Below, one piece after another: positions 2,434 to 26,674 of a stretch of 64,000 nt of DNA. The stretch comes from Promethearchaeati archaeon. GTDB taxonomy: Archaea; Asgardarchaeota; Heimdallarchaeia; Heimdallarchaeales; Heimdallarchaeaceae. Location: NCBI GenBank assembly GCA_013166775.1, contig JABLTJ010000001.1:130237-194236 (forward strand). Direction: 5' to 3'. The position numbers were made by a program, and so were the translations under genes. Position 1 is the first letter of the stretch. Every line of letters starts with the position of its first letter. The notes beneath the pieces were generated by a model that was not told the origin of the DNA, made no database searches, and saw only the letters and a list, made by a program, of their open reading frames with translations.

Positions 2434-3162
2434 ATGAAATACAAAAAAACTCCTCCACTCAGTCTCTCTTCCTTCAAAAAATATAAAATGAGCTTTAAAC
2501 CTTCAATTTTAATGAGTAACAGACGGAATAAAAAGAATCAAAAGATTCTAACTCTTTTGGAAGATAACTATCCTAAATTTAAAGGAGGTTTGACTAATTA
2601 TTCTTCTCCTTTCCAGTTATTGGTCGCAGCAATTTTAAGTGCTCAAAGCACTGATAAACAAGTTAATTCAGTAACTGAAGATTTATTTTCCCGCTTTCCT
2701 ACTCCTCAGGATTTCGCATCTGCTCCATTAGAAGATATTGAAAAAGCAATCGCAAAAGTTGGTCTCTATAAAAATAAGGCTAAATTTATCAAAGAATTGT
2801 CAATAAAACTAATAGAAGAATGTGATTCTGTTATCCCTACCACTCTAAAAGAGTTAATAAAATTGCCTGGTATAGGTAGAAAAACAGCGAATGTACTTTT
2901 GAATGATTGGTTTGAAATTCATGAAGGCATAGCTGTTGATACCCATGTCACACGTATTTCATATCGTTTAGGCTGGACAAAAAACAAGAATCCAATTAAA
3001 ATTGAGCAAGATTTGATGCAAATAATTCCAACAGAAAAATGGGGACGAATTACTCATCTACTGATATCTCATGGAAGGGCAATCTGTAAAGCTCAAAAAC
3101 CTCAGTGTTTAAACTGCTTCCTTTCGGAGCATTGTCCTAAATTTGGGGTTTCAGAAGAATAA
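2434..3162 (+). CDS. nth: endonuclease III (HhH-GPD DNA glycosylase/AP lyase with Fe-S cluster)
   Basis: LVAAILSAQSTDKQVN; HhH motif LPGIGRKTANVLL; catalytic-region DTHV; C-terminal C-x6-C-x2-C-x5-C (CKAQKPQCLNCFLSEHC). The real start may be the internal ATG at 2488 or 2512. Confidence 0.9.
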   Translation: MKYKKTPPLSLSSFKKYKMSFKPSILMSNRRNKKNQKILTLLEDNYPKFKGGLTNYSSPFQLLVAAILSAQSTDKQVNSVTEDLFSRFPTPQDFASAPLEDIEKAIAKVGLYKNKAKFIKELSIKLIEECDSVIPTTLKELIKLPGIGRKTANVLLNDWFEIHEGIAVDTHVTRISYRLGWTKNKNPIKIEQDLMQIIPTEKWGRITHLLISHGRAICKAQKPQCLNCFLSEHCPKFGVSEE

Positions 3163-3283: not shown

Positions 3284-5593
3284 ATGAATAAAATGTCAAA
3301 AATTGATATTCTTCCTCCATTATTAACTCGAATAGGATTCAATGAAACAGACATTAAAGTATATGCTGCTACATTGGGGCTTGGAAAAGTTACAATAGGG
3401 GAACTATTGGTCGTAACTGGATTAGATCCTCTTACACTCATTCAATCAGTTAAGAATTTAGAAGAATTAGGCTTCCTAAAGAAAACTGTTGGAAGAACTC
3501 CTGTTTATTTTGGAATACTTCCGTTTCTAAAAGAATACATTGTTGTTGAAAAGGATGCTTTATACTCTCTAGATGGAGTAATTAACTCTCTTAAGGCTTC
3601 AAAAGAGGAATACAAAGAGAAAAAGGAGAAATTTGGCGGGACACTAGAACTCACAGGTGAAGGAACTGTTTTCGATATCCACGTGGTTAGTGGTTTAATC
3701 AAGCAGGTAGTTGATTCTCTGTACCAAAATTATTCAGACTACACAGATACAACAGAGATATCGGCTTCTGAATTTGTTGAAGCAATCCGAGCAGAGGTTG
3801 AGGGATATTTAACAAGAATAATGGATCAGCCATTAGTATTTTCTGCACAATTAGAAACCTACATTCAAGAGCTCAATGCTTTCATCAAGCAGTTTCATCA
3901 TACAGCAAATCAACATAGTGAACAGTTGCTAAACTCAATAGATGAGAAGACAAAAGAAACATTCGACAGTCTGAAGAAAATCATTAGTAACGGTCTTGAT
4001 GCTCATACTGACAATCATCATGATTTCTTAGATAAGCTTGCACCAGAGATAGATGTGGAGCTTAAGGAATTAATAGGTAAAATTTCGGAAATCCAAGAAT
4101 CTTTTTCTGATAATTACAACAAGGTTTGGCAAGAAGCATATTCAGGTTGGATTAATGAATCAAAGAGGATTGTTGATGCATTATCACAAAATGTGAATAA
4201 TATTTTCTCTGAGCAAATAAAGCAAACCCAAGAATTACGTAGAAGTGTTGAACAGATAGACAGACAAACAAATTTCTTATCCTCAAAAATTGCTGAGGCT
4301 ATTAATAGCATAGACAGTTCAGCTGTTCTAAAACTAGGAAAGGCTAGAAAACAAATTGAATCACCGTTAATAGATGCAAGAGATACAGTTAGAAATTTAG
4401 CAAACGATCTTAATGAAAGTGGCTTGCAATTAATTGATCAACATGTTCTAGCACTGAATGAAGTCAGAGATGACGTTAGATCGAAACTAGATCATTTCCA
4501 ACTTGATGGTGAAACTACAATAAGAACAAAGAAGAATCAGTTAATAGATGCTACATTAGAAAAAATAGATTTGCTTCCAAACGATTTACTAGATTTACTT
4601 CAAAATCAAACAGAGGAATATGCTAGATCCGCATATGATTCATGCTCACAGGTAACTCAAGAATTGAAACAAACAACAGATGAGCAACTGACAACTATGA
4701 AAGAACAAGCAACAAAGGAAGTTAAGATTTATGCGAATGAGCAATTTCAAGTGATAGAAAAGTTACAATCAGATGTTATAAAAGAATTAAGCAAATCAAA
4801 ACAAGATTCTGAAAAAATGGCTTTGGATTTAAAAGAAAAGCTACAATCTTCTGTTACTAGCTTTAATGAGCAAGTGAATACGAAAAAAGAAGCCTTTGCA
4901 CAAGAATTAACAGATACGAAACAGAATTTGAAAGATTACAAGGAAGAGAATAAAGATCAAATTATCAAGCAAGTTACTGAAGGGGAAGAAATTCAGATTA
5001 ATACTCTAGTGTCACAAGTTGCTTCTGTAATAAAAGATGTAGATGAAATTTTAGTATCTCAACTCGATTCTCTAATGGAAAAAGCGATGACATTCTATCA
5101 AGTCATTAATACTAGAGAAGATGAGTTAAAACAAATAAATAAATCAGCTTCTACTTATTCCTTCGATGGTCAACATAACACATCAATAATTGTTGGAGAA
5201 GAGGCTATTAAAGCAAGTGTTACGGATATTGCAATGCGTTCGAAGTTTGAGTTGCTTTTAGTAACTCCTGATGTCGATGAAGAATTATTAAAAGAAATGA
5301 TGCAATATACAAAAGCTCAACGAATAACATTAGTATCATCTTTTGATAAAAGTAAACACCAAACACTACTTAGACCTTTGTCAGAAAGATTCACAGGTTT
5401 GAAGTTAAAACATTATGCAAAGAAAGATGTTTTCTGTGGAATACTTGATGGTAATCAAGAAGCAATTTTCGCATTTCTTTCCACTGATGAAGTTCCAATT
5501 GCAGTTAGAACAACGAATGATCTTTTATTACAATTATTCAAAGCTGCAATAAATAGAGATGTTCTATTTCATTCAAGTGATGTAGAAGTATAA
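3284..5593 (+). CDS. TrmB-type winged-helix N-terminus + ~600-aa alpha-helical/coiled-coil region + conserved C-terminal alpha/beta domain
   Basis: N-terminal IKVYAATLGLGKVTIGELLVVTGLDPLTLIQSVKNLEELGFLKK resembles a TrmB HTH. The long E/K/Q/S-rich helical middle has no Pro/Gly breaks. The C-terminal ELLLVTPDVDEELLKEMM...ITLVSSFD parallels the C-terminus of the 48081..50333 ORF. Confidence 0.85.
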   Translation: MNKMSKIDILPPLLTRIGFNETDIKVYAATLGLGKVTIGELLVVTGLDPLTLIQSVKNLEELGFLKKTVGRTPVYFGILPFLKEYIVVEKDALYSLDGVINSLKASKEEYKEKKEKFGGTLELTGEGTVFDIHVVSGLIKQVVDSLYQNYSDYTDTTEISASEFVEAIRAEVEGYLTRIMDQPLVFSAQLETYIQELNAFIKQFHHTANQHSEQLLNSIDEKTKETFDSLKKIISNGLDAHTDNHHDFLDKLAPEIDVELKELIGKISEIQESFSDNYNKVWQEAYSGWINESKRIVDALSQNVNNIFSEQIKQTQELRRSVEQIDRQTNFLSSKIAEAINSIDSSAVLKLGKARKQIESPLIDARDTVRNLANDLNESGLQLIDQHVLALNEVRDDVRSKLDHFQLDGETTIRTKKNQLIDATLEKIDLLPNDLLDLLQNQTEEYARSAYDSCSQVTQELKQTTDEQLTTMKEQATKEVKIYANEQFQVIEKLQSDVIKELSKSKQDSEKMALDLKEKLQSSVTSFNEQVNTKKEAFAQELTDTKQNLKDYKEENKDQIIKQVTEGEEIQINTLVSQVASVIKDVDEILVSQLDSLMEKAMTFYQVINTREDELKQINKSASTYSFDGQHNTSIIVGEEAIKASVTDIAMRSKFELLLVTPDVDEELLKEMMQYTKAQRITLVSSFDKSKHQTLLRPLSERFTGLKLKHYAKKDVFCGILDGNQEAIFAFLSTDEVPIAVRTTNDLLLQLFKAAINRDVLFHSSDVEV

Positions 5594-5665
5594 ATCTACT
5601 CACTTCTTTTACACATTTTTAAATAAAGGCAATAGAAACTAGCAAGAAAACGTTTTTTACATTGA

Positions 5666-5920
5666 TTAATCAACATAAAATTTACAGGATCTCATATCTA
5701 AAAGATGTGGAAGTTTTTGAATTAAACCAGCTCTTACTAAAAGTTTTAACCCATGACGAACTGTTCTTGGTGCTAAACTGCACATCTCGACAATTTCTCT
5801 GCTAGTGATTGGACCATTTCCAATAACTATTTTATAAATTGTAATTGCGCTTGGAGGTAAATCTGATAAAAGCTCTTGTTTTAATTTTGGATTTTCTAGT
5901 GCTACTGCCACATATATCAA
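5666..5920 (-). CDS. small winged-helix (ArsR/MarR-like) DNA-binding protein
   Basis: 84 aa; GPITSREIVEMCSLAPRTVRHGLKLLVRAGLIQK has the HTH + wing pattern. Only a TTG start is available. Confidence 0.55.
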   Translation of the reverse strand: MIYVAVALENPKLKQELLSDLPPSAITIYKIVIGNGPITSREIVEMCSLAPRTVRHGLKLLVRAGLIQKLPHLLDMRSCKFYVD

Positions 5921-6409
5921 TCCTTTAGGGGTTGTTTAAAAATCAGCACAATCTCTTTTTAAATCTATTTGAAATCTACTCAGAAAAAAACAAGTCAAAT
6001 ATTGTTTTATTGGTTATATCTATCACAATTTTAAATCACAAGCATAATATACAAAAAAAACATTTTCTCCTTTTTTACTTTTTAAAAAATTGCACATATC
6101 CCCTTAAATTGGGGAAAACATTAATTTTGGAGCTCATACTAATTACTTGATTTTGGCAAGTTTAGAAGATAAAAATACAATAAGAATTGATTTTGCCATT
6201 TTGATAAGCAGCTTCAAGGACTAAATATAACTGTGAAGATGTAATCTGTGCACCTAAAAGTGAGTAAGGATTCAAAATAAGAAAACTTCAAATCTAATAA
6301 AAAACTGAAATTTAGAGGAAATAAATAACTTTTATTTTATTGCGGTTATTATTCCTTACGGTAAAATTATGTATTAATAGAGCATAGTTTGTTAGGAAGC
6401 AAGCAGATT

Positions 6410-7072
6410 TCATAATAGGGATTTGGATTCTTTAGCTGATAAATGTGCTAAATGTAAAGGAATTGGTATTTTATATTTAGAAGACATTAATTGCTTTATT
6501 ATTCTGAAAGAAGACTGGATAGATATTTTGTTTCCTGGTGAGATATAGATTGGGTTCCATTTTTCATTTGATCTATATTGGATTCCAACATCCCTTTCCT
6601 TAATTCTGATGTATTTTGTATTTTTATTTTTCGATGGAAAGTAATTGAAATATCTTAATGGTTTCTTAGCTACTCCAATTGCTGGTTTATTGGAAAGAAC
6701 ACCAAAGATAGTAGCAGAACCAGCGAAGTATGGATGCGCTATTCCGTGACCATCTATCAAGAACAAGTCAGGCATATTACTAAACGCCGGTAGGATTTTA
6801 AGAAAGAATGGAACTTCTCTCAGAAACAAGAAAGTTGGAATGTATGGAGAAGTTACATCATCTTTTAATATTCTTTTTTCGATTATCTCTTTCTTTTCTA
6901 TATCAAAAATAATACCCGCGACATAACCTTGTTTTCCTTTATACGCAACATCCAATGCTCCAACTTTTGAGATTCTCTTCAAACTATCTTTAATTACTGC
7001 TTTTTCAGCTAATCTTTTCTGAAATTCTCTTGCTTCTGACAAATTTTCAGGAAAATTAACTTTCATATACAC
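6410..7072 (-). CDS. nfi: endonuclease V (deoxyinosine 3' endonuclease)
   Basis: GALDVAY..., LIDGHGIAHPYFAGSATIFGV...PAIGVAKK match the endonuclease V catalytic motifs. Confidence 0.9.
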   Translation of the reverse strand: MYMKVNFPENLSEAREFQKRLAEKAVIKDSLKRISKVGALDVAYKGKQGYVAGIIFDIEKKEIIEKRILKDDVTSPYIPTFLFLREVPFFLKILPAFSNMPDLFLIDGHGIAHPYFAGSATIFGVLSNKPAIGVAKKPLRYFNYFPSKNKNTKYIRIKERDVGIQYRSNEKWNPIYISPGNKISIQSSFRIIKQLMSSKYKIPIPLHLAHLSAKESKSLL

Positions 7073-7127
7073 TCTCTCTTCAAATAGAATATGAAGATGA
7101 AATCATAAAAGATTTTTTCTCCACTTT

Positions 7128-8747
7128 CTAGTCTTCTTGGCAATTTAAAACATCGCAGTATTTTTCATAGGACGTTATTAAAAATCTTTTATCCAGTTTA
7201 TGGATTATTTTATCCCATGGTAGATTGTCATCAATTTTATATCGCCAAGTAGCTTCATCAGCGAATGATTTATTTTCATTTTTTAGTGCTTTCTTCCAAT
7301 TTCCTATTGTATTGCCCATTTGTCCTATTTGATGTATGATGGAGAAATAAGTTTGATTGCGTAATGATAAAATACGTTGAACTATAGCCCAGTTGGGATC
7401 GTATAAAGACAATTCAACATTCTTTAGTTGAAAAATATTCTTTCTATACCACTTCTGTTTATCTTTTGATTCATTTAAACTGTTCATTCTCGAAAATTGT
7501 AAAGGAGTATGTGCTTTTGTAATAAACTGATTCATGGATAAAGATATCTTACCTGTAGGAAAGTGTTGTTCTCTCATTGTTTTTACAAAGCTGAATGTCT
7601 TCTGTTTAACTTCTTCCTTTTCACAAGGGAATCCATATATCATATACATTTTTAATTGTCTGAATCCTTTATCCCAAGCTAATTTTGCAGCAGAAAAAAT
7701 AGTTTCATCTGACATTCTTTTATTTAATGCGTAACGAAGGGTTTCATCGCCTGTTTCAGGAGCTAAAGCTATAGTTCTTTGTTTTCCTTTCTGAAGAGCT
7801 GTGATTAGATTCTCTGTTAAATAATCAGCACGAATGGAAGAGCAAGATACCTCGTAACCTTTGGAAACTATATATTCAATTAGTTCATCCAATCTACCTG
7901 ATTGAGCAACTGCACTCCCATAAATAACTACTTTCTCAAAATTATTAACTTCTTCAGATTGATCTATAATTTTAGTAAGCGATTCAAAACTTCTAGCAGC
8001 TCGTGGGAAACGACAATGACCAGTAAAACAAAATAAACATCTTTCTGAACATCCTCTGTCTGTTTCAAGATAAAATGCTTTACCAAAGATTGGTTCATTC
8101 TTGGTCCCTTTGACATTTTCTGGAATTATCTGTTTTATAGGGTAATATGCATCTGAAATGCTTTTGATTTTCACACTTCTGATTTTTTCACCAAACCATT
8201 CTCCCTCTTCGTTGTAATGTAGTCCTAATCCCATAATGCCATTTACTGATGCAATTGATTCACGTATCTTCTTTTTTGACTTGTTCTCAAAAGCCTGAGA
8301 TAATTCTACATAAATTGGTTCTATATCACCAAGAAAGAAAACATCAGGCAAGAATAAAACCGGAAAAGGATTTGCTGTAGGAGATGGTCCTCCCATTATA
8401 ATAAATGGATCTTTTTCAGTTCTCTTCCTGATATCTGCATTGATTCCTCCCCTATGAAGAAGTTCTATTGCTGATAGATAATCATGTTCAAATTGACAAG
8501 AGATTGCCAAAATATCAAAATCAGAAATCTTTCTTTGACTCTCTAATGAATAAGGAGGAATTCTATGATCTAGAGGTTTGAAAATGCGCTCACATAAAAA
8601 ATTGTCATGCCTATTAAACAAGAAATAAAGTAATTGAACACCTAAACTGGTCATAGCCACTCTGTATGTATTTGGATAGATTAATCCAATTTTGATTTTA
8701 CCTGGAGACCAGTCTTTCTTAATAGCATTCTGTTCCTTAATTAGCAT
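7128..8747 (-). CDS. radical SAM enzyme with N-terminal B12-binding-like domain
   Basis: CX3CX2C motif in RGCSERCLFCFTGHC. N-terminal Rossmann-like KIKIGLIYPNTY...DILAISCQFEHDY is typical of B12-binding radical SAM proteins. Overlaps the upstream gene by 11 nt. Confidence 0.85.
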   Translation of the reverse strand: MLIKEQNAIKKDWSPGKIKIGLIYPNTYRVAMTSLGVQLLYFLFNRHDNFLCERIFKPLDHRIPPYSLESQRKISDFDILAISCQFEHDYLSAIELLHRGGINADIRKRTEKDPFIIMGGPSPTANPFPVLFLPDVFFLGDIEPIYVELSQAFENKSKKKIRESIASVNGIMGLGLHYNEEGEWFGEKIRSVKIKSISDAYYPIKQIIPENVKGTKNEPIFGKAFYLETDRGCSERCLFCFTGHCRFPRAARSFESLTKIIDQSEEVNNFEKVVIYGSAVAQSGRLDELIEYIVSKGYEVSCSSIRADYLTENLITALQKGKQRTIALAPETGDETLRYALNKRMSDETIFSAAKLAWDKGFRQLKMYMIYGFPCEKEEVKQKTFSFVKTMREQHFPTGKISLSMNQFITKAHTPLQFSRMNSLNESKDKQKWYRKNIFQLKNVELSLYDPNWAIVQRILSLRNQTYFSIIHQIGQMGNTIGNWKKALKNENKSFADEATWRYKIDDNLPWDKIIHKLDKRFLITSYEKYCDVLNCQED

Positions 8748-21697: not shown

Positions 21698-23263
21698 TCA
21701 GTTTTTTGAACGTAAAACTGTTAGATTTGTTGTTTTACTATATTTCGTATTACTGCTTGATTCAACTAATTTTCTTAAAGACTCCAAGACTTCTTTATCA
21801 TAAAATTCCAATAGTTTATTATTTTCTGTTTCATTCAAACTTCGTTTATTAACTAAAATTGAAAGATCACCGTTTTGATATCTATGTTTAGGAAAATCTT
21901 CATCTTCTAATTCTTTCTTCGTTTCCTTCGATATCTCTCCCTTTATTATCTCATCTTTGTTCAAATCTAGAACATGATTTGAATTTATAGTTATATACTG
22001 CTTTGCTTGCTTTGGTTGAACAGGATTAACTGATAACTGAATTGTTTTTATTACATTTAGATTTTTATCTAGAAAATAGATCTGTTTATCCTCACCTACA
22101 GTTATCAAGCGATTCTTATAGTAACTTATAGAAAGAGGTGTTTTATTGTGAATTTTCTTTTTAATCACACTCTCTAGATTAATATTATCAAATAATTGAA
22201 TTTCTCCATTATTGAAAGCTATTGCTAGAAAATCAGGTGTAACACAAGAACCTGAGATTGGAATTATTTTTGGTATTGTACTCTTAATTTCTAGTTGATG
22301 ATTAAGCGTTACAATCTCCCCTGATTCCAAGCCAACAATAATTAGTCCATCAGATGATTTTTTTAAAGACAAAGGACGTGATGGGAGTTTTATTGATTCA
22401 GTAGGGGTAGTAGTTTCTAAATCTAAAATAACTACAGTAGAATCTAGGGAAGTTGTAATTAGTTTGTTTTCTAGAAATTCAATGCCTGTTATGTGTTTGC
22501 TATGCGGAAAAAGAGTTTCAAACAATTTTCCATTATCCCTTCTCCAAAGGGATACTAAACCAAATTGATGCCCTAAGATGAAGAAATCACCAGTTATAGT
22601 ACAAACAGTTGAAGGAATTCCATATCTTCTAGCCATGCTAAAGAGAATAGTATGGGGATCTTGGTTCTCAAAATCCTTTATGTATCTACTAGCCTTTTTT
22701 ATAGCTCTAATCAATTTCTTCTTACCTATAGCATTGTTTCTGAATTTGGAAAAATCTTCTGCTTTACGAATAGAAATTAATCCGTATTGATCTGTAATTA
22801 TAATTAGATCACCACAAAGAAAGAATCTCTCCATACCTGGAATTTTTATTCTTTTCTCTTCTACCAATTCACTGTCCTTGAATTTCCATTTTTTAAGCAT
22901 GTGATCTCTACTTGCACTGATTACATAATTTCGCCAAGGTTTTCCTCCAATTATTGCTGAAGCATGAGCTTTTTTAGAACCAATCAACGAGAAATCTTTT
23001 AGAGACCAGAGTTTTAATTCTAAATCATTTGAAGTAGTGATTAGAATCTCTTCATCATTTATTTTCTGAACATCATTAATTGAGAATTTATGAGCATATA
23101 AACATCCTATTTCCTCATTGAGATTAGAATCCCAAATGCAAACTCTCCCATCCTCCCCACCAGTAAAAATGTAATCTTCTACCTCTTCTATTTTAGTAAC
23201 ACCTTTAAGATGTCCAGGTTGATGAAATAGGATTTCAATGTGTTCAGTTTCTCTATTACTCAC
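21698..23263 (-). CDS. WD40 beta-propeller repeat protein with helical C-terminal tail
   Basis: Repeats ending GGEDGRVCIWD, ELKLWSL, DHMLKKWKF, GLVSLWRR, DSTVVILDL, plus further blade-like units. Confidence 0.85.
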   Translation of the reverse strand: MSNRETEHIEILFHQPGHLKGVTKIEEVEDYIFTGGEDGRVCIWDSNLNEEIGCLYAHKFSINDVQKINDEEILITTSNDLELKLWSLKDFSLIGSKKAHASAIIGGKPWRNYVISASRDHMLKKWKFKDSELVEEKRIKIPGMERFFLCGDLIIITDQYGLISIRKAEDFSKFRNNAIGKKKLIRAIKKASRYIKDFENQDPHTILFSMARRYGIPSTVCTITGDFFILGHQFGLVSLWRRDNGKLFETLFPHSKHITGIEFLENKLITTSLDSTVVILDLETTTPTESIKLPSRPLSLKKSSDGLIIVGLESGEIVTLNHQLEIKSTIPKIIPISGSCVTPDFLAIAFNNGEIQLFDNINLESVIKKKIHNKTPLSISYYKNRLITVGEDKQIYFLDKNLNVIKTIQLSVNPVQPKQAKQYITINSNHVLDLNKDEIIKGEISKETKKELEDEDFPKHRYQNGDLSILVNKRSLNETENNKLLEFYDKEVLESLRKLVESSSNTKYSKTTNLTVLRSKN

Positions 23264-23359: not shown

Positions 23360-23418
23360 TGGCTCATTTCGTCGTGAGAACATCACAATGTCAGTCTGGG
23401 ACGGTTAAATCATCGCCA
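23360..23418 (-). ncRNA. candidate C/D-box sRNA (2'-O-methylation guide)
   Basis: Minus strand reads UGGC-GAUGA(C box, GCGAUGA)-UUUAACCGUCCCAGA-CUGA(D')-CAUU-GUGAUGU(C')-UCUCACGACGAA-AUGA(D-like)-GCCA. Terminal UGGC/GCCA can pair; length 59 nt; intergenic between ileS and the WD40 gene. Both guides complement conserved LSU rRNA sequences as I remember them. Confidence 0.5.
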
Positions 23419-23500
23419 TTTAATATTTAATGTTTTCAGTTTTTATCTGTTACCGTTTGAGAGTTGTGGATTATAGATATTCGTTTCTAAAAGAAAAAAG

Positions 23501-26500
23501 CTATATGGGCACAATGCCTATTGCAACCTTATATCCATCAAATTCCCATTCTTTAACATGTCCATCTGTTGGTTGTTCTTCTCTAAGCTCAGTACTTAAT
23601 GTTTCACTCATTATGAAATCCTTGAATTTTTCAATTGCAATAGTTCCAAATTCATCAGCTTTGACTGTTAATTGTATGTTTTGTGTATATTCGAGATCCA
23701 ACTCTTTTCTCATTGTTTGAATGCGTCGAATTATATCTCTAACATAACCTTCTCGTTTTAGTTCTTCAGTAATCGTTGTATTAAATAAAAGGAGATATCC
23801 TTCTGATTCTTCTCCGGTAAATCCTTCAAGAACCTCTATTTTATAATTTACATCTTCTGGTGTTAAAGTATATTTCTTGTCATCAATATTCAAAGAGAAA
23901 TTTTTACCTTCTGATAACAGATTAACATAATCGCTTGCAGTTTGCGTGTCTAGCTGACTTAACTGCGTTCTGATTTTGTTTATTTCTGATTTTACTTTTG
24001 GTGCTAGAGCTTTGAAATTTGGTGATATTTGATATTTAACAAGTTCATCTGAAGTTTCTTGCAAAGCAACTTTCTTTACATTAAGTTCTTCTCGTAGCAC
24101 ATCGTTATATTTTTCTATCAATTTCTCCTTACCAATTGGTGCTATTATAACTAATTCAGACAGAGGTTGTCTAAGTTTTATGTTCGCAGACGATCTGATA
24201 CTTCTTCCAGTAGTTACTAGTGAAAGTACAGCATTCATGTCTTGGGATAATTCTGAATCAGTGTGTTTTTTGGTAAAGGTTGGATACATACACAAATGGA
24301 CACTTTCAAGTTCATCTGGATTCAATCTTCTTACGAGATTCTGGAATAGTTGTTCCGATATGAATGGTAAAAATGGTGCAAGTATTTTAGACATTGTTAC
24401 CAAAATCTCATAGGTTGTTATGAAAGCAGATTTCTTTTCCAAATCAAGTCCATCTTTCCAAAATCGACGTCGAGATTGACGTAGATACCAATTACTGAAT
24501 TTATCTAGGACAAACTTTTCAAATGCTTCAACTGCTATATGAATTGTCATATTTTCAAGTGCTTCATTTACTGCTACTATTAGATAGTTGACTTCACTTA
24601 TCAGCCATTTATCAAGCTCTGGCCTCTCTTTTAGAGGAACAAAGAATGCTTCTTTATCGAACTGATCCACATTTGAGTTTGAAACAAAGAAACTATAACT
24701 ATTCCAAAGTGTCAGTATGAATTTCTTCATCGTTTCATATATTTGATTTGCATCAACTCGTATACTATTCCATGTAGGATAAGAAAATAAAAACCATCTT
24801 ACTGCATCCGCACCATATTTTGGGATTACATCATTAGCAAAGATAACATTTCCTTTGCTTTTACTCATTTTTTTACCTTTCTCATCGAGTGTATGTCCCA
24901 TCGTTAAGCAGCTCTTGAAAGCTGGTTTATCAAATAGAGTTGTACTTATAGCAAGTAAAGTATAGAACCATCCTCGTGTTTGATCGATAGCTTCGGTGAT
25001 GAAATCATAGGGAAAGTGCTCATCGAATAATTCCTTATTTTCAAATGGATAATGATATTGAGCAAAAGGAGCACTTCCTGAATCATACCATGTGTCAACC
25101 ACATAGGGAACTCGCTCACAGATATCTTCACATTCTTGGCACTTGAAAGTTATTTCATCTACCCAAGGTCTATGTAAGCTGAAATCCTCTGGTAATAGTT
25201 TTCCATATAAGGTTTTGAGCTCCTCTAAACTTCCTATCACTGTTCTATGGCCATTACCACATATCCAGATAGGTAGAGGTGTTCCCCAGTATCTGTTTCT
25301 TGAAAGAGCCCAATCTCTTGCTTCTTTTATGAAATTCCCAAATCTTCCTTCCTTAAGATAAACAGGTTGCCAGCGTATCTTGTCATTATTCGCTACCAAT
25401 TGCTCTCTTAATTTAGACATTTCAATGAACCAAGACTCTGTTGAATAATAAAGCAAAGGCCCGTCACATCGGTAGCAGAAGGGATATGTGTGTTTATATG
25501 TACCTTTCTTGAATAACAATCCTCGATTTTCAAGATTTTTCATAATTTTAGAATCTGCTTTCTTTACAAATAATCCTGAAAAATCTCTTATTTCTTCTGA
25601 GAAGGTACCGTCTTCTAGAACTGGATTCATTAGAGGTAATCCATATTTTTTCCCTATTTCTGCATCATCCTCTCCAAATGCAGGAGCAGAGTGAACAACT
25701 CCTGTACCCTCTTCGGTGGTCACATAATTTGCTAGTGTCACATAAAACGCTTCTTCTTTAGGAACAATAAAGGGAAAGAGTTGCTCGTATTTGTTAAATT
25801 CGAGATCTTTTCCTTTGAATCTCTGAATTACAATGTAATCCACTAGTAGCTTCTCAGCTATGGCTTCAGCCAAAATTAGTTTCTCTCCATTATATTCAAC
25901 TTGAACATAATCTACTTCTGGGTGCAATGTTAGACACACATTAGATATTAAAGTCCAGGGAGTAGTTGTCCAGGCTAAATAGTATGTGTTCTCAAAATCT
26001 AAGGATTTAAATTTCACATGTATTGAAGGATCTGTTGTTTCCATCATTCCTTGTCCAACTTCTGCTTGTGATAATGGTGTTCCGCATCTTGGACAATATG
26101 GAACGACTTTATATCCCAAATACATTAATCCTTTATTATATATCTCTTTCAAAGACCACCATACGCTTTCAACGTAATTCTCGTCCATAGTAACATATGG
26201 ATTGTCAAGATCAAGCCAGAAACCTATCCTCTTAGACATATCATGCCATTCTTTTACATACTTGAATACAGACTTTCTGCAAGCTTCATTAAAATTGCTT
26301 AAACCATATTCATCAATTTGTGATTTACTACTAAATCCTAGTTCCTTTTCAACTTCAAGTTCAACAGGAAGTCCATGACAATCCCATCCTGCTATCCAGG
26401 GGACAATATTATATCCATGCATTGATTTATGTCTTAGATATACGTCTTTGATAGCTCTTGTTAAAGCATGTCCAATGTGAGGAAGACCATTAGCTGTTGG

Positions 26501-26674
26501 AGGACCTTCTAACCATCTAAAAAGAGGTCCTTCATTTCGTAATTTACGAACCTTGTCAAATATCTTCTTCTTCTCCCAGAATTCCAATACCTTTTCTTCT
26601 TCTTCTGCAAAAACAGGCAATGCTTTAACGGTTTCAAATACGTGTTTCTTCTTTTCCAAAATAAACAACTCCAA
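23501..26674 (-). CDS. ileS: isoleucine--tRNA ligase
   Basis: HIGH motif (PHIGHAL), KMSKS motif (KMSKSKGN), CP1 editing-domain size, zinc-binding Cys pairs (CPRCGT, CYRCDG). 1057 aa; apparent TTG start. Confidence 0.95.
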   Translation of the reverse strand: MELFILEKKKHVFETVKALPVFAEEEEKVLEFWEKKKIFDKVRKLRNEGPLFRWLEGPPTANGLPHIGHALTRAIKDVYLRHKSMHGYNIVPWIAGWDCHGLPVELEVEKELGFSSKSQIDEYGLSNFNEACRKSVFKYVKEWHDMSKRIGFWLDLDNPYVTMDENYVESVWWSLKEIYNKGLMYLGYKVVPYCPRCGTPLSQAEVGQGMMETTDPSIHVKFKSLDFENTYYLAWTTTPWTLISNVCLTLHPEVDYVQVEYNGEKLILAEAIAEKLLVDYIVIQRFKGKDLEFNKYEQLFPFIVPKEEAFYVTLANYVTTEEGTGVVHSAPAFGEDDAEIGKKYGLPLMNPVLEDGTFSEEIRDFSGLFVKKADSKIMKNLENRGLLFKKGTYKHTYPFCYRCDGPLLYYSTESWFIEMSKLREQLVANNDKIRWQPVYLKEGRFGNFIKEARDWALSRNRYWGTPLPIWICGNGHRTVIGSLEELKTLYGKLLPEDFSLHRPWVDEITFKCQECEDICERVPYVVDTWYDSGSAPFAQYHYPFENKELFDEHFPYDFITEAIDQTRGWFYTLLAISTTLFDKPAFKSCLTMGHTLDEKGKKMSKSKGNVIFANDVIPKYGADAVRWFLFSYPTWNSIRVDANQIYETMKKFILTLWNSYSFFVSNSNVDQFDKEAFFVPLKERPELDKWLISEVNYLIVAVNEALENMTIHIAVEAFEKFVLDKFSNWYLRQSRRRFWKDGLDLEKKSAFITTYEILVTMSKILAPFLPFISEQLFQNLVRRLNPDELESVHLCMYPTFTKKHTDSELSQDMNAVLSLVTTGRSIRSSANIKLRQPLSELVIIAPIGKEKLIEKYNDVLREELNVKKVALQETSDELVKYQISPNFKALAPKVKSEINKIRTQLSQLDTQTASDYVNLLSEGKNFSLNIDDKKYTLTPEDVNYKIEVLEGFTGEESEGYLLLFNTTITEELKREGYVRDIIRRIQTMRKELDLEYTQNIQLTVKADEFGTIAIEKFKDFIMSETLSTELREEQPTDGHVKEWEFDGYKVAIGIVPI

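Follow-up and report, generated by a model that had tools for sequence, protein, structure and literature searches.

Does the 237-nt gap between ileS and a WD40 gene in this Heimdall-group archaeon (genome assembly of 3.85 Mb in 115 contigs) hold a gene for a guide RNA, and if so, which rRNA nucleotides would that RNA address? The first-pass annotation of the window (the whole stretch of DNA analysed here, 64,000 nt) had proposed a box C/D sRNA in this gap. Its minus-strand sequence reads as quoted, and the gene coordinates confirm both the size of the gap and the shared minus strand of the two genes and the candidate. The locus is laid out as follows, in window positions.

23501..26674, minus strand: ileS (isoleucyl-tRNA synthetase; Pfam tRNA-synt_1, E 3.6e-121), the upstream neighbour
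23440..23454, minus strand: A/T-rich box GGUAACAGAUAAAAA, conserved, its centre about 26 nt upstream of the 5′ end of the sRNA
23360..23418, minus strand: the whole predicted box C/D sRNA, 59 nt; the block conserved in relatives is exactly these bases
21698..23263, minus strand: WD40 propeller gene (Pfam WD40-type propeller hits), the downstream neighbour, outside the sRNA

Between UGGC and GCCA ends, the 59 nt at 23360-23418 contain a D′ box CUGA, a C′ box GUGAUGU and a 12-nt spacer that leads to a D box AUGA, all of them as annotated. The parts are listed in the 5′ to 3′ order of the RNA.

23415..23418, minus strand: 5′ strand of the terminal stem, UGGC; the stem has 5 bp (GUGGC/GCCAC) in most relatives
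23407..23413, minus strand: box C, AUGAUUU, in the k-turn register; the variable loop nucleotide G (23414) directly precedes it
23395..23406, minus strand: D′ guide AACCGUCCCAGA, 12 nt, which pairs with the P-loop of the organism's own 23S rRNA
23391..23394, minus strand: box D′, CUGA; some relatives have CAGA or CGGA, and position 5 of C′ changes to match
23387-23390, minus strand: linker CAUU, 4 nt between D′ and C′
23380..23386, minus strand: box C′, GUGAUGU; AUGAUGU, AUGAUGA or AUGAAGA in relatives
23368..23379, minus strand: D guide UCUCACGACGAA, 12 nt, with two sites in the organism's own LSU rRNA
23364..23367, minus strand: box D, AUGA, invariant in the archaeon's own taxonomic family
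23360..23363, minus strand: 3′ strand of the terminal stem, GCCA, which pairs with UGGC

One box had to be moved. The first-pass annotation had read box C as GCGAUGA, followed by a 15-nt spacer; we rejected this placement because the alignment of relatives puts box C at AUGAUUU, in the k-turn register, which makes the C-to-D′ spacer 12 nt and not 15. The weak points that the annotation had listed against its own candidate (the odd C box, the AUGA D box and the long spacer) vanish in this register. The two spacers are then 12 nt each, and the total of 59 nt lies in the range of about 50-70 nt sought for the class. Internal D′ and C′ boxes are present with a short linker, which has 3-4 nt in family members and reaches about 10 nt elsewhere in the phylum. 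Pyrococcus sR38 has the same AUGAUUU/AUGA ends and so provides a precedent for the box variant.

The C/D ends can form a k-turn, with a stem, a 3-nt loop and tandem sheared G.A pairs. Throughout the alignments the closing stem is followed by three loop nucleotides (the first variable, the second a purine, the third U) and then by an invariant GA. All 20 family members aligned have UGA in both box C and box D, together with a stem of 4-5 bp and an N-R-U loop; position 1 of box C is A or G (GUGAUUU in some relatives), and the loop nucleotide before it is G, U or C. Positions 6 and 7 of box C and position 1 of box D depart from the consensus (RUGAUGA/CUGA). Position 6 of the C box and position 1 of the D box form a pair in the non-canonical stem of the established k-turn structure, and across the phylum these two positions covary, as U-A, A-U, G-C and C-G. 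The pair is U-A here and G-C in most other families of the phylum, as it is in the consensus; box D in other families is CUGA, UUGA or GAGA, each time matched to position 6 of box C. In the predicted k-turn, then, the two departures from consensus at C position 6 and D position 1 compensate each other. The closing stem behaves likewise: in distant homologues, four of its five pairs have double compensatory changes. For five covariation measures, none of 500 column shuffles reached the observed value, a control that overstates significance for related sequences. The RNA by itself does not fold significantly (z = -0.35); box C/D sRNAs typically fold weakly on their own.

We scanned both strands of the 3.85-Mb genome for the box layout (a C-like box, 12 nt, D′, 2-8 nt, C′, 12 nt, a D-like box and a 4-bp closing stem). 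The single match was the element itself, and the reversed-sequence control gave 0. When the surrounding 181-nt stretch was compared by BLAST with 40 relatives, matches were found in 22 of 24 same-genus genomes; in most of these the alignments start and stop exactly at the 59 nt, and the flanks diverge. Chance occurrence of the motif was rejected on these three grounds, the uniqueness of the layout, the empty control and the conserved 59-nt block. A covariance model built from 20 homologues has one match in the organism's own genome (84.5 bits). Within the family it also matches 28 of 30 other genomes. Beyond the family, it gives weaker matches in two other families of the order and matches 21 genomes from ten more families of the phylum. 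The homologues in other families have retained the boxes as well as the two guides.

The genome encodes the proteins that such an RNA would need. Contig C94 carries a fibrillarin gene (E 1.4e-94) next to a Nop5 gene (E 2.5e-66), and the genome has two L7Ae-family genes.

Rfam did not place the RNA in a described family. With gathering thresholds the whole window gave no match, and in E-value mode it gave sub-threshold C/D snoRNA matches only: SNORD31, sR38, sR7 and DdR13 scored 16, 12, 11.5 and 12.3 bits against gathering scores of 40, 50, 37 and 65. The Rfam scan that the first-pass annotation had put forward as a check thus returned no family at gathering score, the best being SNORD31. Its call of a C/D-box sRNA is nevertheless supported by architecture, conservation, covariation and guide pairing. 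Taken together, this comparative evidence says that the 59-nt element is a real box C/D sRNA of a Heimdall-group archaeon.

A loose box scan also brought up a second candidate double-guide C/D sRNA, on the plus strand of contig C56 from 10801. Its layout is AUGAUGU, 12 nt, CUGA, AUU, UUGAUGA, 11 nt and CUGA, with a GCC/GGC closing stem.

For the targets we used the organism's own 23S rRNA gene (contig C52, 4985-8366). Its P-loop, at 23S positions 2340-2351, reads ACUGGGGCGGUA. Positions 2-11 of the D′ guide pair with LSU 2341-2350 over 10 bp, nine Watson-Crick and one G-U, with a duplex energy of -20.2 kcal/mol. By the N+5 rule the C in the guide is paired with G2344, which in alignment to E. 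coli rrlH is E. coli G2251, the second G of the P-loop GGGG. The D′ target proposed in the first-pass annotation, a pairing to the P-loop with one G-U and with the G2251 equivalent at N+5, therefore holds in this organism. Wherever a family member has an assembled 23S, the P-loop is invariant; the single wobble of the guide shifts between positions 6 and 7 in relatives, and the N+5 C:G pair stays constant.

Methylation of this site occurs in each of the three domains. RlmB makes Gm2251 in E. coli, and aFib with an sRNA does so in Haloarcula; the counterparts of Gm2251 are Gm2619 in yeast (snR67) and Gm4196 in human 28S rRNA. Guides for G2251 have been predicted in three archaea (Dennis et al. 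2015, PMC4644070).

The D guide has two sites. One is at LSU 2901-2910, UUGUCGUGGG, on the 5′ strand of helix 89, where guide positions 2-11 form 10 bp including two G-U, and N+5 falls on U2904, which is E. coli U2460. The other is in helix 93, which reads CCGUUGUGAGA here; guide positions 3-12 pair with LSU 3035-3044 over 10 bp including one G-U, and N+5 falls on U3037, which is E. coli U2593. Helix 93 was the target named in the first-pass annotation. The 10-bp duplex does exist, but helix 89 is equally good and is the site conserved by covariation; moreover, the annotation had assumed CGUCGUGAGA for helix 93 where this genome has CGUUGUGAGA, so that this duplex too contains one G-U. With energies of -15.4 kcal/mol for helix 93 and -14.5 kcal/mol for helix 89, the two duplexes are so nearly equal in stability that sequence alone cannot assign the D target within this genome.

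Aligned to the organism's own 23S rRNA, as had been proposed, each guide thus gives 10 bp in the correct register, above a floor of at least 9 bp, with N+5 pairs C:G for D′ and A:U for D. About 3% of shuffled guides reach such in-register pairing, per guide, and genome-wide there are about 0.02 in-register sites of such quality per LSU length. In the 16S gene (located by a universal motif) and the 32 predicted tRNAs, sites for the two guides do not exceed 8 bp.

Relatives separate the two D-guide sites. We checked the helix-89 and helix-93 sequences in 16 family genomes and in five genomes from other families. Both rRNA sites are invariant within the family, so it is the guide's own variation that discriminates between them. 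Over all 12 distinct family guide variants the helix-89 duplex stays at 8-12 bp, and guide positions 9-11 are pyrimidines in every variant, opposite the GGG of helix 89; six of the 12 leave helix 93 with a duplex of just 6-8 bp. Beyond the family, guide position 8 changes together with rRNA nucleotide 2463: the pair is A:U in the archaeon's own family, G:C in G027, G067 and G052, and U:A in G080 and G114. The last two guides would have a U.U mismatch with helix 93 at this position, which together with the helix-89 covariation identifies helix 89 (U2460) as the conserved predicted target of the D guide. In the families of G080 and G027 the spacers have 13 nt, and N+5 slips to the neighbouring G2459. 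Since the helix-89 pairing alone survives the guide variation of relatives and covaries, helix 93 is at best secondary, although it may be a second target of the D guide in the archaeon's own genus.

The reading that we consider likely is that of an independently transcribed, double-guide archaeal box C/D sRNA that targets G2251 and U2460, and possibly helix 93 too. L7Ae would bind the terminal C/D k-turn and the internal C′/D′ k-loop, and Nop5 and fibrillarin would assemble there. Each 12-nt spacer would pair by its positions 2-11 with 23S rRNA, and fibrillarin would then add a methyl group to the 2′-OH of one rRNA nucleotide, the one opposite the fifth guide position upstream of D′ or D. For the D′ guide this nucleotide would be G2251 of the P-loop; for the D guide it would be U2460, on the 5′ strand of helix 89, and in the archaeon's own genus U2593 in helix 93 could be reached as well. 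Transcription, RNP assembly and both methylations are steps that we infer from sequence. Counting against this reading are the off-consensus C/D boxes and the G-U pairs in the helix-89 and P-loop duplexes.

Next in standing, as a tentative possibility, is a D guide that serves helix 89 (U2460) and helix 93 (U2593) alike, by means of G or U residues able to wobble at differing positions. At the core guide positions that tell the two sites apart (3, 6 and 10), the guide carries G, G and U, and each of these can pair with either site; the two duplexes have almost the same energy; and position 10 stays U in most lineages, though C would pair better with helix 89. These points hint, weakly, at selection on the wobble-capable positions. 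The choice was free at just two of the three positions, however, where chance fits too, several lineages have lost the helix-93 complementarity and kept the RNA, and the literature consulted offers no experimental precedent for such a guide. Its extended form, with one guide for U2460 and U2593 through wobbles at differing positions, and the RNA perhaps acting also as a chaperone of pre-rRNA folding or splicing beside the introns described below, we regard as doubtful.

It is quite unlikely that helix 93 (U2593) is the real D target of this same sRNA and the helix-89 match incidental. The helix-93 duplex in this genome has its 10 bp with only one G-U and marginally better energy, and the guides of G052 and G067 also fit helix 93 well. 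Such a target would nevertheless have shrunk to 6-8 bp in half of the family guide variants despite an invariant rRNA site, would tolerate the U.U mismatch at guide position 8 in G080 and G114 just where helix 89 covaries, and would in every case within the archaeon's own family have a G-U beside the target nucleotide. It also requires guide position 12. With a 12-nt spacer, position 12 is unavailable and only positions 2-11 pair, according to the published structures of archaeal C/D RNPs.

That there is no RNA gene of its own here, and that we are looking at a cis element of the ileS 3′ UTR or the WD40 5′ leader or at a chance motif, is highly improbable: the strict same-strand synteny with ileS and the lack of a significant stand-alone fold speak for it, but boxes and guides alike are retained by homologues in other families of the phylum, a conserved TATA-like box stands at the right distance, weak self-folding is usual for C/D sRNAs, processing from ileS read-through would alter biogenesis and not function, and the cis-regulatory version was rejected because it gives no account of the guide-rRNA covariation.

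Synteny and the upstream flank fit the preferred reading, an sRNA gene in its own right. Of the Heimdallarchaeota loci, 18 take in the 3′ flank of ileS, and all 18 have the element there, 53-115 nt downstream of the gene and on its strand; the closest relatives of the ileS gene have all been deposited as Candidatus Heimdallarchaeota MAGs, AB_125 among them. Among the 20 homologues the A/T-rich box at 23440-23454 is the sole conserved block of an otherwise divergent upstream flank, and we infer that it is an archaeal BRE/TATA promoter. An ORF of 96 aa at 23430-23720 on the plus strand, antisense to the 3′ end of ileS and to the sRNA promoter region, is most likely spurious.

The 23S gene that holds the targets is itself interrupted. 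An insertion of about 348 nt at 23S 2549-2896 (contig C52:7533-7880) splits a universally conserved sequence of the peptidyl-transferase ring between GGGGUAAC and AGAG, at a site corresponding to about E. coli 2449-2452. Each of the 16 family members checked has it, with an interior that varies. Its 8-bp closing helix covaries (CUGCGCUU/AAGCGCAG, CUACACUU/..GUGUAG and CUGUGCUU/AAGCACAG), and manual inspection, with the covariation of the closing helix, gives a core of two 3-nt bulges around a 4-bp helix; minimum-free-energy folding of the insertion returned no canonical bulge-helix-bulge. The insertion is probably an intron of the bulge-helix-bulge type, as removed by the archaeal splicing endonuclease. 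The helix-89 guide site starts 5 nt past the 3′ junction of this putative intron. G027 (family f4) has no insertion at the 2449-2452 site of its 23S but an apparent one inside helix 89, after ...GAGCUCACA (about 1160-1500 of its 23S locus, in reverse-complement orientation); the positions of introns therefore differ between families of the order.

A further insertion occurs in same-genus relatives right after the A2600 equivalent in helix 93, between ...GUUGUGAGA and UGGAUUUAAG... Its carriers are G001, G005, G008, G009, G012, G013, G016 and G020; the genome studied here does not have it. The insertion point is exactly where the guide's complementarity to helix 93 ends. The 23S of these relatives probably has a second intron here, at a site of its own. 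On contig C52 we also noted the universal 16S '515' motif at about 100-1700 on the minus strand, opposite to the 23S gene at 4985-8366 on the plus strand, so the rRNA genes seem to be divergent and not one operon.

The closest known likeness is Sac-sR110 of Sulfolobus acidocaldarius, an RNA detected by RNA-seq with 5636 reads, for which the authors gave the targets as 'not predicted' (Dennis et al. 2015, PMC4644070, Additional file 1). It is a double-guide C/D sRNA of similar size, with D′ guide CGCCGCUCCAGU, D guide CAACGCGACGAG and C′ box AUGAUGU, and its two guides, in the order that ours have, share with them the cores CCG(Y)(Y)CCAG and CGCGAC/CACGAC. It differs in its boxes (C AUGAUGA, D CUGA, D′ CUGC) and comes from a different phylum. 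Our RNA has the order of a P-loop guide at D′ and a helix-89 guide at D by pairings with its own rRNA; the pairings of Sac-sR110 were made by hand against the archaeal consensus, not Sulfolobus rRNA itself. The likeness could reflect common descent or convergence on the same two targets. That a P-loop and helix-89 double guide occurs in Sulfolobus also suggests that the guide predates the split of the lineages.

Other RNAs share the P-loop guide. The guide core CCGUCCCAG occurs in Thermoproteus tenax sR107, Ignicoccus hospitalis sR410 and the haloarchaeal sRNA for 23S Gm1950. As in our RNA, a box (D or D′) comes next, in a register that predicts Gm at the G2251 equivalent; in T. tenax sR107, unlike here, the P-loop guide is at D, not D′, and the partner guide is another. 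The model consensus of SNORD31 (U31) has a guide, ACCGCCCCAGUCUGA, in the same register as our D′ guide, and it is this shared P-loop guide, not family membership, that accounts for the weak Rfam match. Human U31 guides the G2251-equivalent site. Yeast snR67 methylates the same nucleotide (Gm2619) and has a different second target, Um2724. Both eukaryotic RNAs differ from ours in being longer, in their other second guide and in assembling with Nop56/Nop58. Pyrococcus sR38 (RF01121) resembles our RNA at its ends, with the consensus GGCGAUGAUUU ... AAUGAGC, that is, C AUGAUUU and D AUGA; its guides are others, and at the score given above our RNA is not a member of that family. By its guides, our RNA is a new member of a known guide family, probably an ancient one.

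Among archaea, rRNA guides of the box C/D class are commonplace; the Asgard group is the one most closely related to eukaryotes. Our full-text literature search found no catalogue of rRNA box C/D guides for Asgard archaea. The sRNA described here most likely directs the sugar methylation of two nucleotides near the catalytic centre of the ribosome. Its ends offer a clean natural example of a compensated non-consensus k-turn, in which the pair of position 6 and position 1 occurs as G-C, U-A, A-U and C-G. The D guide illustrates that three-state covariation between guide and target can settle an ambiguous target without experiments. In the Heimdall-group archaea, the universally conserved Gm2251 of the P-loop is probably RNA-guided, as it is in eukaryotes (snR67, U31), where bacteria use a stand-alone enzyme.
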